A stretch of DNA of 63,775 bases, the filler included, from Octopus bimaculoides (taxonomy: Eukaryota), in assembly GCF_001194135.2 (NCBI RefSeq). It is 8 parts of 7 records of this genome, joined end to end, with 100 filler letters (N's around TTAATTAATTAA, not from the genome) between each part and the next. Parts side by side here need not be neighbours in the genome. Positions count along the whole stretch, not along the records: positions 1 to 14,331 come from NC_069005.1; positions 14,432 to 30,389 come from NC_069001.1; positions 30,490 to 32,347 come from NW_026356516.1; positions 32,448 to 34,672 come from NW_026407190.1; positions 34,773 to 39,264 come from NC_068987.1; positions 39,365 to 46,572 come from NC_068985.1; positions 46,673 to 61,381 come from NC_069005.1; 1 more part is not named here. One strand, 5' to 3'. Shown in pieces: positions 14,081-61,381 of this stretch. Every line of letters begins with the position of its first letter. Within the stretch, counting starts at the first letter, position 1. A program made the position numbers and the translations under genes. The notes beneath the pieces are model-generated. The model made no database searches and was not told where the DNA came from. It was given only the letters and a program-made list of their open reading frames with translations.

Positions 14081-14331
14081 ACAAATAATAACAACAGACG
14101 AGGACAGGTGGTGTAAATAACAAAAGTATATATTAGTATGACGCTCGGGAATACGGAAAGTCTTTGACGTTTCGAGCTACGCTCTTCAACAGAAAGAATA
14201 CGGAGACAAGGAGAAAAACACGGAGAAAAAAAATTGAATAGTGTTCAGTCAACGGTCAATCATAATAATGGCCGATCATAACAATGACTGACCGGAAGTT
14301 AGAAATTCTTATTTCAGGAGAGCTAAGAAAG
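14081..14331 (-). mobile_element. Hammerhead-bearing (TA)n-associated element, subfamily 1, longest copy
   Basis: Near-identical over about 190 bp to 46681-46870 and to the reverse complement of 23168-23292; the 3' end abuts (TA)n at 14050-14080. Confidence 0.85.
14161..14197 (-). ncRNA. Minimal type-I hammerhead ribozyme-like motif (A6U variant)
   Basis: Minus: UCUUU-CUGUUGA-A-GAGC-GUA-GCUC-GAAA-CG-UC^-AAAGA. Stems I and II are fully paired; palindromic ACGU stem III. Confidence 0.7.
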
Positions 14332-14431
14332 NNNNNNNNNNNNNNNNNNNNNNNNNNNNNNNNNNNNNNNNNNNNTTAATTAATTAANNNNNNNNNNNNN
14401 NNNNNNNNNNNNNNNNNNNNNNNNNNNNNNN

Positions 14432-14590
14432 CCGTCCCATTGCTCAACTGGTAGTTTATTTAATCGAACCCGAATGGATGAAAGGTAAAATCGACCTCCA
14501 TGTAATTTAAAAACGCAAGACATATAAACAGCCGAAATGACTCTACGCATTTTGCCTGGCTTGCTAATGATTCTGCCAGCTCGCGAATTA
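14432..14590 (-). mobile_element. SINE family B, diverged
   Basis: caactggtagtttatttaatcgaacccgaatggatgaaaggtaaaatcgacctc...gattctgccagctcgc. Confidence 0.75.
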
Positions 14591-16087
14591 ATGAGCACAG
14601 ATATTATCAAGCATTTAAAAAAAAAACAAAAAAACTCAGTTAACAGTTGAGATTTCATTGGTCGATGAAACAAATTTAGATGAAAATATTTCGTGTTCTG
14701 CACATGAGGATTGTATAGACGATTGTGCCTGGCATTTTCGCAAATTTTGATCGGCAATCACAATTCGAATGCCAATGCACTTTTGATAAATCGAGAATAT
14801 ATTTTAGCTTTATATTGTCATACGGCTTCTCTTCATTCGTTTGAATAATTGAGATAATCAGCAATGATTGAAGTAACGCTGTGCTTTATATATAGTTTCA
14901 TATACACATATATGGAGAGATAAAGAGAGAGAGAGAGAGCGAGATGATGGGAGAGATGAGTGGGAGGAGAGAGAAAGAGAAAGTGTTGTGGAATCTGCAA
15001 GTAAATCTAGAAAGAGATCATAGGATCGCGGACAGAATGTAATTGTGTGCCCATATGAGAGTATGTGCGTCCATTTAGCAATCATGATTTTGACTGGAAG
15101 ATTAAAGAGACATTGAATAGAAATATGTTTCAAAGCAACTGCCAGGGAATTGTGTGAGTGTGTTTGTGTGTGTGTGTATGCGTGTATCTTTAGTGCATCG
15201 TGTGTACAAAGAAGAGTTGTCAATGGATGCTGGACCAAAGAATAATCAAAGACGACATTTCGCCAATAACAAAACCGTTTTCCACTGCACTCATCCGTTT
15301 AACTTGACTGTTTCAAATATACGAACAAAATTATATCAATTTTCACTTTTTTTTTTACCACTTCTTTCTTCTCTGTATGTATGACTCTCACTTTGTATGT
15401 ATCCTTCTCTCCTTGCTTATGTTTGTCTGTCCATCTCTCACACTCACCCGCTCTCTGTCTCTTACTCCCTCTCTCGTCTCTCCGTTCCTCCGTTTCTCTT
15501 TTGTCAATGATTATGTACTGACTGCACGTTCTTTCGATTGAAGTCTATTTACCATAATTTCTGCGATTCATTTTCTCAACTCTAGACCGTGTCTGAAATG
15601 CCTTGTGTATCTATATATTTATGTATATCAAAGAATGATTACATATAGGTGGGTACATTCGTGTGAGTGTGTGCGGTACGAAGGTGCATGACCTAGGTAT
15701 TGGGAATTTTGATTGTACTTTCGTTGTTTGAATTGCTGGAGCCTGTAACACGATCTATCCTGGAAAAAAAATGTGTCATCTCCCGTTGCTCCAATCCACT
15801 AAGCTGGAAATGAGTAACAGGCTATTGTTTATGAAGGTCTCTCACCGCCTCCAGGTGAGACAGCCTAGTTGTGTTGCAACATGAAATGGATGAGGAGATG
15901 TGAGGATGACAATGTCTGCTCTCAAATATAGAGGCAGCTAAAAACGATTACTCTTTTACTTGTTTCAGTCATTTGACTGTGGCCATGCTGGAGCACCGCC
16001 ATAATGATATTTCACTTCCATCTACTCACATCTTAGCAAGACCTTACTTTATTCGCATCATTTTATAACATAGGTTCTTCCTTTATA

Positions 16088-16393
16088 ACATAGGTTCTCA
16101 AAGTGGGCGCTATCGCTCCGCCGGTGGGTATTTAGAGGGTCCACGTGAGCGCTTGTGTGTATGGGGGTGGTAGAGAAAAAGGAAGCACTGGGAGAAAGGC
16201 GATGGATTGGGGGACGTTATGAGTTTATAATATTATTTTAGTATTGTATACAAATTATATATTATAATAAATATCAAATGATTCATAGTATATATACATT
16301 AGTAAAATATTTATACATAGAAATAGGAGTGGGCGCTGAGGTTATTATATGGCCATGAGTTAGGCGGTGGACCAACACGTTTGAGAACCACCA
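16088..16393. mobile_element. hAT (Charlie-like) MITE with eroded ends
   Basis: ggttctcaaa (16093) / tttgagaacc (16380) inverted termini resembling CAGTGGTTCTCAAA. Confidence 0.5.
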
Positions 16394-16658
16394 ATGCTTC
16401 CTATTCCGAGTTCCATTCTCTTTCCAATTATCAAGTTTAAAAACGGCTCCCCCTTTCTCCCTTTCCCACTCTCCCCTTCTCTCTTTCTCTCTCTCCCCGA
16501 TGACAGAATAGATCATTGATACATGGATTGCTACCGTCTGCTTTGCACAACTCTTTTGTTTCGCTTCTGCGCGTATGTTTCTGAAACATTTGTTTATTTC
16601 TTTCCTTCTTACGATCTGCTCACATATAAGTTCATCATATTTAACGACAGAAATGACG

Positions 16659-16693
<35 letters not shown>

Positions 16694-16786
16694 NNNNNNN
16701 NNNTTATTGCTGTTTTCTGTAGAATAATTATTAACAACAGCTGAGCAATATAAAAGATACCATCAGCAAGAACAACAGCAACAAAA

Positions 16787-16840
<54 letters not shown>

Positions 16841-58622: not shown

Positions 58623-58656
<34 letters not shown>

Positions 58657-58674
58657 TAATAATCCTTTCTACTA

Positions 58675-59545
58675 TAGGCACAAGGCCTGGATTTTGTGGG
58701 GAGGGGATGAGTCGATCACATCGACTCCAGTACTCGACTGGTACTTAATTTATCGACCCCAAAAGGATGAAAGGCAAAGTCGACCTCGACGAAATTTGAA
58801 CTCAGAACATAAAGATAGACGAAGTGTCGCAAAGGGTTTTGCTCCGCGTGCTAACATGGTATCAATGTCTATGATAACAACGAATCAAAAAAATGTTATG
58901 ATTATAATATACTGTAAAAAGAATTTGAAATAAGATATCACATTAATATAACGGTTTCAAATTTTGGCACAAGGCCAGGAATTGGAGGGGGGGGGGCTAG
59001 TCGATTACATCGACCCTAGTGTTCAGCTGGTGCTTAATTTATCGACCCCTGAAAGGATAAATGGCAAAGAACACTAGCATATTTATTTCTTTATTGCCCA
59101 CAAAGCGCTAAAAATAGAGGGGACAAACAAGGACAGATAAAGGGATTATCTAAGTCTTTATTGCCCACAGGGGGCTAACAAGGACAGACAAAGAGATTAA
59201 GTCGATTACGTCGACCCCAGTGAGTAACTGATACTTCTTTCATCGACCCCCGAGAGAATAAAAGGCGAAGTGGACCCCAGCTGAATTTGACTCTGCCAGC
59301 TCGCCGAATAATAATATAAACACGGTATCGTGCTCTTCAATGTTTATGATAACAACAAAACAAAGAAACGTTATGATTATAATATACTATAAAAACAACA
59401 TGAAATAAGATATCACATTAATATAACGATGTCAAATTTTGGCTCAAGGCCAGGAATTTGGCTGAGGGTGCTAGTCGATTACATCGACCACCTTTATTTA
59501 GCTGGTGCTTAATTTATCGACCCCTGAAAGGATGAATGGCAAATA
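58675..59545 (-). mobile_element. Cluster of four SINE family B pieces, partly within a tandem duplication
   Basis: Repeated gtcgattacatcgacc...tttatcgacccc..aaaggat at about 58710, 59000, 59200 and 59475. Confidence 0.8.
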
Positions 59546-60763
59546 ACGAGTCATTTGGGGGGAATACTTCCATGAAGCAAACCTGAGTAGTCTCCCTTAG
59601 AAATAAAGTAATTATGTATAAGAGTAATCTCCCCTGATTAAAGTCTGAAAAAGTTATTCGGTATTAAATAAAGGGTTGTCTCCCTTGTTAGTATCTGAAC
59701 AAGTGTGCCTTTTCACGTGCTTGGCTGTTGGTGAAAATGTGGCATATATTCCTGGATTGAGCAATTAACGATCTCAAACAAGCAATAGTAATGAATGAAG
59801 GATGCAAGCAAATGAAAAAAACTGAGAAAAAACTTCCCTATCTCCAATAATAATCACGGGAGAATTGCCACACGAGTCGGTAAAAAACGAAGTATGAAAA
59901 TTATTAAATGCAAAAAGGGCGTTACTTCTGTATGAAAAGTAATTCATTGATTTCTTACATTNNNNNNNNNNNNNNNNNNNNNNNNNNNNNNNNNNNNNNN
60001 NNNNNNNNNNNNNNNNNNNNNNNNNNNNNNNNNNNNNNNNNNNNNNNNNNNNNNNNNNNNNNNNNNNNNNNNNNNNNNNNNNNNNNNNNNNNNNNNNNNN
60101 NNNNNNNNNNNNNNNNNNNNNNNNNNNNNNNNNNNNNNNNNNNNNNNNNNNNNNNNNNNNNNNNNNNNNNNNNNNNNNNNNNNNNNNNNNNNNNNNNNNN
60201 NNNNNNNNNNNNNNNNNNNNNNNNNNNNNNNNNNNNNNNNNNNNNNNNNNNNNNNNNNNNNNNNNNNNNNNNNNNNNNNNNNNNNNNNNNNNNNNNNNNN
60301 NNNNNNNNNNNNNNNNNNNNNNNNNNNNNNNNNNNNNNNNNNNNNNNNNNNNNNNNNNNNNNNNNNNNNNNNNNNNNNNNNNNNNNNNNNNNNNNNNNNN
60401 NNNNNNNNNNNNNNNNNNNNNNNNNNNNNNNNNNNNNNNNNNNNNNNNNNNNNNNNNNNNNNNNNNNNNNNNNNNNNNNNNNNNNNNNNNNNNNNNNNNN
60501 NNNNNNNNNNNNNNNNNNNNNNNNNNNNNNNNNNNNNNNNNNNNNNNNNNNNNNNNNNNNNNNNNNNNNNNNNNNNNNNNNNNNNNNNNNNNNNNNNNNN
60601 NNNNNNNNNNNNNNNNNNNNNNNNNNNNNNNNNNNNNNNNNNNNNNNNNNNNNNNNNNNNNNNNNNNNNNNNNNNNNNNNNNNNNNNNNNNNNNNNNNNN
60701 NNNNNNNNNNNNNNNNNNNNNNNNNNNNNNNNNNNNNNNNNNNNNNNNNNNNNNNNNNNNNNN

Positions 60764-60841
60764 CAGTTGCGTACTGGGATCGATCTAATCGACTTACCCC
60801 CCTCCCATCAAATTTCAGGCCTTGTACCTATAGAAGAAAGG

Positions 60842-60894
<53 letters not shown>

Positions 60895-60960
60895 GGCGGC
60901 GAGTTGGCAAAATCGTTAGCACGCCGGGAGAAATGCTTAGCGATATTTCATGTCTTTCCG
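60764..60960 (+). mobile_element. SINE family B 3' end with an (ATT)n tail, followed by the head of another copy
   Basis: cagttgcgtactgggatcgatctaatcgac...aggccttgtacct...(att)n acggcggcgagttggcaaaatcgttagcacgccggg. Confidence 0.8.
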
Positions 60961-61189
60961 TGCTTGCATTTCAGGAAATTCCTGTTGGCCTATTGGAACC
61001 CACAAGGCAAGAGGTTCACTTACGATCGACAGCCAAAGGGAGACAATCCCCTGTTGTTGACATTGAGTAGCGAGGTCCTTCCCTCCTCCATTTTCTAGAG
61101 ACGCCACTCGTTATATATACTGCTCTATAACTTAATGTCCTTTTTTCGGATACACACATATGTATATATATATATATACATATATATTC

Positions 61190-61381
61190 GCCATGATAGA
61201 TCGCTAGCCACTATACCTTTTTCTATTTTCTCTCCCTGTTTATTTCTGTGTTCCTTTCTGTCGAAGAGCGTAGGCTCAAAACGTAAAAGACTTTCTCACC
61301 TCCCGAACGTTAAACTAACACATCTGTTTGTTGTTTACACACCGCTCTTCGTCTATTGTTTTCTTTTTTGTAAATTCTCAC
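61190..61381 (+). mobile_element. Hammerhead-bearing element, subfamily 2 (motif 61254-61289 with G12A)
   Basis: CTTT CTGTCGA A GAGC gtag GCTC AAAA CG TA AAAG; same 5' start as the 34215 copy. Confidence 0.78.

Follow-up and report, generated by a model that had tools for sequence, protein, structure and literature searches.

The window analysed here (the whole stretch of 63,775 nucleotides (nt), comprising 14,383 N and 49,392 called bases) is microsatellite-rich DNA of the octopus Octopus bimaculoides (assembly GCF_001194135.2) and contains three microsatellite-flanked repeat families with hammerhead ribozyme motifs. The original prediction described one of them, a family with six copies of a minimal type-I hammerhead in which the core base A6 is replaced. 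It overlooked two further hammerheads in the window, permuted but with perfect cores, here termed families A and B, which matter more. Both are predicted to adopt a five-way fold, the parts of which are located as follows.

39398..39845, minus strand: family A repeat, between two (TA)n tracts
39592..39696, minus strand: predicted five-way permuted hammerhead of family A, with a perfect core and six helices
39696-39694/39594-39592, minus strand: family A helix IV, 3 pairs
39693-39666, minus strand: family A hairpin V
39665-39661/39633-39629, minus strand: family A stem II, 5 Watson-Crick pairs, formed with an upstream partner
39659-39651/39616-39608, minus strand: family A brace helix, 9 Watson-Crick pairs
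39646-39643/39625-39622, minus strand: family A stem III, 4 pairs
39642, minus strand: family A U17, with the predicted cut at 39642/39641
39641-39635/39608-39602, minus strand: family A stem I, 7 pairs
39601-39595, minus strand: family A CUGAUGA box
28159..28248, plus strand: second family A copy, 85% identical, with GAAA and CUGAUGA present and the upstream half lost in a gap
1346..1711, minus strand: family B repeat, flanked by a (CA)n and a (TA)n tract, a 5′-truncated piece of a longer element
1455..1577, minus strand: predicted five-way permuted hammerhead of family B, with a perfect core and six helices
1577-1572/1460-1455, minus strand: family B helix IV, 6 pairs
1571-1534, minus strand: family B hairpin V, 8 pairs
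1533-1528/1501-1496, minus strand: family B stem II, 6 pairs
1527-1521/1481-1475, minus strand: family B brace helix between stems I and II, 7 Watson-Crick pairs
1517-1513/1492-1488, minus strand: family B stem III, 5 pairs
1512, minus strand: family B A17, with the predicted cut at 1512/1511
1511-1506/1473-1468, minus strand: family B stem I, 6 pairs
1495-1492 and 1467-1461, minus strand: family B core boxes GAAA and CUGAAGA, respectively
48609..48680, plus strand: truncated family B copy, 97.7% identical over 43 nt

In both families the strands run in the order stem II 5′ strand, cleavage block, GAAA block, and CUGANGA block, and the conserved core bases and stems I–III are complete in both complete permuted loci. 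The bases after A9 in family A pair with bases just 5′ of hairpin V, and the upstream strand of stem II sits directly after that hairpin. In the predicted fold of both families, helix IV and hairpin V replace the A9–G10.1 link, with no unpaired bases between A9, helix IV, hairpin V, and G10.1, and the brace joins the far sides of stems I and II. The continuity of CUGANGA with stem II (an unbroken block C) is accordingly broken, the 5′ strand of stem II lying upstream and helix IV following A9. Because stem III has 4–5 intramolecular pairs and a I–II brace is present, no dimer would be needed in either family. Free-energy folding does not model pseudoknotted forms such as these. Both families end on (TA)n; sequencing reads run past 1702-1710 in family B, i.e., the element extends upstream, and the copy at 48609-48680 keeps only one stem I strand, the CUGANGA box, and one helix IV strand.

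Family A was first noticed by self-comparison of the window (39541-39633 versus 28161-28248), with GAAA upstream of CUGAUGA, and a scan of all block orders placed an S-G-C arrangement with a 7-pair stem I at 39601. A type-II reading of this family was rejected, as it offers no matching stem I; a GCS match at 28192 has a distant stem I of 4 pairs. The fold was derived from family A and published element ends before a descriptor was built. Family B then came to light blind, through a three-helix descriptor that included the upstream strand of stem II, and it also has helix IV and hairpin V in the predicted positions, abutting A9 and G10.1. The full descriptor matches two loci in the window, compared with none in 1000 window shuffles and none in 5000 local shuffles per locus in which both core boxes were held fixed. 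Only 58 bases align between B and A over 123 and 105 nt, respectively, yet the six helices pair in both, so that different letters make the same helices. The permuted fold is very probably real and selected, and the modelled structure would likely self-cleave. In viral contigs, a short pattern of permuted boxes matched two loci, which were dropped as chance, the helices being absent by eye.

Published ends of Naiad Penelope-like elements (PLEs) bear on this fold. They were read by eye over the last 300-400 nt of 48 consensus sequences in the supplement of PMC8557442. Naiads prefer (TA)n, are described there as having no canonical hammerhead, and in some cases carry unexplained boxes labelled 'HHR_core' and 'HHR_half_core'; Hydra elements share the preference, and (TA)n insertion is therefore not specific to Naiad (PMC8557442). 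The same five-way fold, in different letters, is seen in four of the 48 ends (Naiad_Obim, _Ovul, _Amil, and _Anas) and, with two broken pairs, in _Aacu. Type-CSG hammerheads with all three stems paired are present in six of the eight nematode families (Naiad-1/2/3_Nbra, _Hcon, _Hpol, and _Asuum), and their letters compensate in every stem. _Esco and _Bfor have looser S-G-C arrangements. The other 35 ends have no clear hammerhead by eye, and some of these excerpts may stop downstream of the motif. We lean towards the view that PLEs thought to be ribozyme-free (Naiad, perhaps others) carry non-circularly permuted hammerheads, of type CSG in parasitic nematodes and of the new five-way form in cephalopods and corals. 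Animal genomes would then hold their first known permuted hammerheads, in very high copy number and beyond the reach of standard descriptors. In addition, several bivalve and hemichordate Naiads have another conserved G+C-rich motif right after the open reading frame (ORF), without hammerhead boxes, which could be another structured RNA or ribozyme.

Sequencing reads mapped to 1346-1711 (852, 803, and 666 reads in three RNA runs, and 3384 pieces in one contig run) show how family B varies. The RNA reads amount to 58-67 per million, in about equal numbers in both orientations, and are mostly 90-95% alike to the window copy, and therefore come from other family B copies. Among the 40 changes listed, 11 fall in the ribozyme, and nine of these keep or improve the fold or lie at free positions. 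The outer stem I pair goes from A-U to U-A, with one partner changed in 49% and the other in 41% of unphased RNA reads. Two changes, each at 95-97% of reads, make stem II fully Watson-Crick (6/6) with the upstream strand, and one at 96% of reads repairs hairpin V. Also tolerated are a helix IV change of U-A to U-G, changes at N7 and at a loop base, and A to C at H17. Two RNA runs each have 44-45 reads that match the 3′ half of the family B ribozyme but depart at 1498 into a different upstream sequence, which suggests a related subfamily with another 5′ half. At the loose upstream ends of family B, the last codons are by eye nearer the ORF end of Hydra-1_Obim (Hydra-clade) than that of Naiad, over a length too short to classify; a Hydra-clade likeness may be entertained as a weak lead.

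The six minimal motifs of the original prediction are all present at the positions and on the strands that it gave.

14070..14331, minus strand: subfamily 1 element, motif 14161-14197 with U6 (14189) and a cut predicted between 14166 and 14165; 3′ end on (TA)9, 5′ end lost in a gap
23177..23292, plus strand: subfamily 1 copy, motif 23205-23241, U6; a gap cuts the 3′ end
46681..46870, minus strand: subfamily 1 copy, motif 46771-46807, U6; TA-repeat 3′ end matching that of the 14070 copy
34220..34361, plus strand: subfamily 2 copy, motif 34283-34318, C6
61190..61381, plus strand: subfamily 2 copy, with U6 and G12A in motif 61254-61289; predicted inactive
1888..2076, minus strand: sole copy of the third lineage, motif 1965-2000, with C6, U4C, and a 3-pair stem I

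A relaxed minimal-hammerhead descriptor matches these six sites but has no match when the 49,392 non-N bases are shuffled 200 times with dinucleotides preserved, and a strict CUGANGA/GAAA descriptor matches nothing in the window; the point that strict searches would miss the family therefore holds. Position 6, said to be U or C throughout, reads U in the four copies at 14161, 23205, 46771, and 61254 and C in the two at 34283 and 1965, and the CUGANGA box of PLE minimal type-I hammerheads is thus unmatched at A6 in all six, with U4C in one. The ACGU palindrome to which stem III was said to be cut down is found in 6/6 copies, as are an extra A after A9 and the G10.1-C11.1 pair; GAAA is kept in 5/6, and stem I has 3–5 pairs. 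The shared core layout is intact apart from position 6 in four of the six, the 61254 copy having G12A and the 1965 copy U4C, and identification as a PLE minimal hammerhead fits every feature of the published consensus except A6. An Rfam scan of the window returned no hammerhead family at E <= 1, only microsatellite artefacts and one tRNA-like match, and exact-pattern scans for the motif with a pyrimidine at position 6 gave 0 matches in metagenome contigs and 0 in viral contigs.

The copies fall into three lineages about 75–80% alike, with drift in the core limited to positions 6 and 7. The near-identity of the subfamily 1 copies (14161, 23205, 46771) was borne out at 99.5–100%; the subfamily 2 copies (34283, 61254) are about 92% identical, and 1965 stands alone. 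Subfamily 1 is young. Two of its copies (14070, 46681) have the common 3′ end on (TA)n that had been described, and the third is cut by a gap. Most of the remaining ends of the minimal copies lie in gaps. Variable 5′ truncation applies to subfamily 1, in which the ends at 46870 and 23177 differ and the third meets a gap, but not to subfamily 2, both copies of which begin at an identical 5′ point. The subfamily 1 stretch is present in 20 public sequencing runs from 8 studies under two organism labels; no RNA run is on record, which is uninformative on expression.

Stem II is invariant across the six copies, which, together with a varying loop, had been taken as the mark of structural selection, but this is conservation and not covariation: a compensatory change is seen in 0/9 stem pairs and a one-sided change in one, in a small sample of six copies. 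Across the three lineages, 29/37 columns are conserved in the motif versus 40/102 in the flanks (Fisher p = 4e-5), a figure inflated by the choice of copies by the motif itself, and RNAalifold recovered stem II but not stem I. A conserved box at 14147-14143 (minus strand), about 15 nt downstream of the minimal hammerhead, recurs at the equivalent place in other copies. It is able to pair with the stem II 3′ strand and G12, a possible off-switch, although RNAalifold did not recover this pairing. A larger permuted ribozyme made of the minimal motif and this box was rejected by eye, with no matching stem I.

Other parts of the earlier account found no support. A Pfam scan of 300/316 filtered reading frames of at least 45 amino acids detected no PLE reverse transcriptase, GIY-YIG remnant, or host exon, only fragments of LINEs (long interspersed nuclear elements) and of long terminal repeat (LTR) retroelements. 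Since no host exon was identified, cutting of host pre-mRNA is speculation. Self-comparison of the window found no tandem or head-to-tail copies of the minimal motif, although gaps could hide some, and the copies are spaced 11–15 kb apart, gaps aside; a retrozyme arrangement is therefore lacking, and a cis dimer would have no partner.

Recent mobility of the minimal family agrees with the youth of subfamily 1, but published rates argue for low ribozyme activity. PLE minimal hammerheads cleave weakly even with A6, and only as dimers (PMC4209133). An A6C hammerhead cleaves at <0.1 per min (PMC3088659), and the natural A6C variant is poor in Mg2+ and good in Mn2+ (PMC7151607). The hammerhead of an anole PLE requires the element's protein, and no RNA ends were seen at its cut (PMC11167929). 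The reported family is best read, from its sequence, as scattered end fragments, or short derivatives, of a PLE whose ribozyme is weakened or inactive, and the six copies are likely slow or inactive PLE ends; that the motif with U or C at position 6 cleaves at a useful rate in vivo is doubtful. A literature search on A6C/A6U, PLE, or octopus hammerheads found no title or abstract pointing to such a family. Luense et al. reportedly described in 2017 about 150,000 PLE hammerhead variants, which may already cover A6 variants.

Taken together, it is on balance probable that the three families represent PLE 3′ ends or non-coding derivatives of them, the minimal family cleaving slowly or not at all, and families A and B, with perfect cores in a five-way fold, probably self-cleaving as single molecules. 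The PLE origin by itself appears likely. In the proposed mechanism, read-through transcription of a complete or tandem element would yield an RNA that includes the terminal repeat, and the ribozyme would trim this transcript upstream of the (TA)n junction, at a distance of 95-245 nt. The PLE reverse transcriptase/GIY-YIG protein would then insert a mostly 5′-truncated copy at a TA-rich site by target-primed reverse transcription. The minimal motif would need a second copy via the ACGU palindrome, and probably also the element's protein, lone genomic copies being silent, whereas families A and B would cleave without a dimer.

Several points weigh against this interpretation. Known hammerheads have at most 1–2 bases inserted beside CUGANGA (PMC10085705), and the opened A9–G10.1 link therefore lacks a tested precedent in the literature examined. 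No PLE ORF was detected in the scanned frames of the window, where the minimal copies are truncated or interrupted by gaps, and the PLE link therefore rests on resemblance. Among the minimal copies, two of six have the second core change noted above, and no stem pair has a compensatory one. In an in vitro study of the anole PLE, hammerhead mutants were without effect on insertion (PMC11167929). As regards the reads on family B, the 40 changes listed are taken from 144, with 104 outside the list, and those in stem I are unphased. The fold-breaking change G12A is present in 22% of RNA reads, and a stem I change of G to A in 25%; both are CpG-type and stand at 2–3% in the contig run. Many transcribed family B copies have therefore decayed. 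No pile-up of RNA read ends was found at 1512/1511 in the three fragmented complementary DNA libraries, a weak test, and the RNA reads on family B contain no back-joints; a dip in depth near the predicted cut is also present in the contig run. With fragmented libraries, both orientations, and mixed old copies, the test is weak, yet it lends no support to cleavage in vivo.

Two alternatives concern activity. The minimal hammerhead might be the active ribozyme of a non-autonomous retrozyme-like element, cleaving as a dimer in vivo and able to cut host pre-mRNA. The rest of its core is held in three diverged lineages, the palindrome is intact in all six copies, and subfamily 1 is young; some activity remains in natural A6C, with more in Mn2+ (PMC7151607). 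This reading is nevertheless unlikely: the window has no tandem units, the stems do not covary, A6C is slow in Mg2+ (PMC7151607; PMC3088659), minimal PLE hammerheads are weak in vitro and no RNA ends were seen at the cut in the anole PLE (PMC4209133; PMC11167929), and the scanned frames hold no host exon. An equally low probability attaches to the idea that hammerhead-derived folds, whether minimal, permuted, or both, no longer cleave and persist as signals to the reverse transcriptase, for protein binding or priming. The loss of A6 in every minimal copy alongside an invariant hairpin would suit such a role, as would insertion of the anole PLE without hammerhead cleavage (PMC11167929) and the lack of an end pile-up on family B. 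However, the catalytic bases of families A and B are canonical, and of the core positions the listed read changes touch only N7 and H17 besides the CpG-type G12A, which is what selection on catalysis itself would be expected to leave; a signalling role fits the minimal family better than the permuted ones.

The other two alternatives concern the permuted fold. Families A and B could be ordinary type-SGC hammerheads in which stem II is made from bases directly after CUGANGA, the upstream strand, helix IV, and hairpin V being accessory. Family A can indeed, with one extra A in between, form a stem II of 3 pairs (one G-U and two Watson-Crick), and stems II of two pairs are on record (PMC3088659). 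Family B has no G after CUGAAGA to pair with C11.1, however, the majority read letters give the upstream partner 6/6 Watson-Crick pairs, and Acropora Naiad ends have by eye no downstream partner, which together leave this explanation improbable. Chance pairing in AT-rich repeats is less probable still, to the point of being very hard to credit. Family A and the published ends were already known when the descriptor was shaped, and a looser three-helix version matched once in 200 shuffles, but the full descriptor found nothing in either shuffle control, the second family was found blind, and read variants preserve the structure. The reading of families A and B as permuted, probably self-cleaving hammerheads is therefore preferred.

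Apart from the three families, the window holds several further features. Self-comparison shows two abundant older interspersed repeat families of about ten copies each, at 67–93% identity, with the following example copies.

5570-5960, 10895-11280, and 33540-33905: older interspersed family
4653-5130, 11533-11707, and 58666-59070: second older interspersed family

An inverted repeat at 2225-2760, with 110 nt arms at 91% and a central hairpin, resembles a miniature inverted-repeat element. The segment 46204-46572 (minus strand) is a LINE-like fragment, probably internally deleted, in which a PHD finger (PF00628, E 7e-7) lies beside a short reverse-transcriptase-like stretch. An RNase H-like domain of an LTR retroelement is located at 41579-41785 (minus strand; PF17919, E 1e-5), and the tRNA-like match (RF00005, 30.2 bits) at 39188-39241 (minus strand) is probably the head of a short interspersed nuclear element. 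At 14332-14431 and six similar places, a 12-base linker with stops in all frames lies between two runs of 44 N; these are assembly spacers, not biology.

By itself, the reported family adds modestly to the PLE minimal hammerheads already known, with an A6U/C variant that runs through all its copies. Families A and B would break an assumption behind the enumeration of hammerhead topologies, namely that CUGANGA is inseparable from its stem II strand, and would shift non-circular permutations from rare metatranscriptome RNAs to animal genomes. Rearranged wiring would explain why some PLEs seemed ribozyme-free, giving a testable answer to the stray core boxes of Naiads, and bears on the question of whether PLEs require self-cleavage or are merely parasitised by ribozymes. 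The open two-helix insertion point within the core may also serve as a natural engineering site for switchable ribozymes.

Among known systems, the PLE minimal type-I hammerheads are closest to the minimal family, sharing with it the order of parts, the extra base after A9, G10.1-C11.1, the palindromic stem III, the U-rich 5′ flank, GAAA-NN-UH, and mostly single dispersed copies (PMC4209133). The 56 representatives in Fig. S3 of that paper keep A6, however (CUGANGA or UUGANGA/UUGANAA), whereas the window copies have U or C, and the descriptor of Cervera and De la Pena 2014 is strict for cuganga (PMC4209133). The hammerhead of phage Bcep176 has a natural A6-to-pyrimidine change, A6C (PMC3088659; PMC7151607), but it is a single phage ribozyme, slow in Mg2+ and preferring Mn2+; in the window, the change runs through a whole family of an animal repeat and includes U6. 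Animal non-LTR retrozymes are likewise non-coding, hammerhead-bearing, PLE-related repeats, but are defined by tandem hammerhead units (bioRxiv 10.64898/2026.07.22.740005), whereas all window copies are solitary. Titles and abstracts found by literature searches announce no Naiad, permuted, extra-helix, or nematode/cephalopod PLE hammerheads of this kind, although subscription papers and supplements could hold them, and passages of PMC13725137, PMC10162972, PMC6765202, and the 2026 retrozyme preprint contain no description of such a fold.

Naiad PLEs share with families A and B the insertion at (TA)n and, in some consensus sequences, five-way or CSG ends (PMC8557442); the window families differ from them in sequence, and the window copies contain no ORF. 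The type-SGC, -CSG, and -GCS hammerheads of Eckert et al. 2023 have the same core bases, cyclic order C-S-G, I–II brace, and short linker from stem I to stem II as families A and B, and type-SGC and -CSG hammerheads cleave in vitro and require the I–II helix (PMC10085705). The examples in that main text come from metatranscriptomes, metagenomes, and RefSeq (two CSG, one bacterial GCS, and none from a eukaryotic genome), and block C is assumed to be unbroken (PMC10085705); families A and B are animal genomic repeats whose predicted fold opens A9–G10.1 by helix IV and hairpin V. Sharing the core, order, and brace but opening the chain, they would therefore work like the permuted types while belonging to none of the three named ones.

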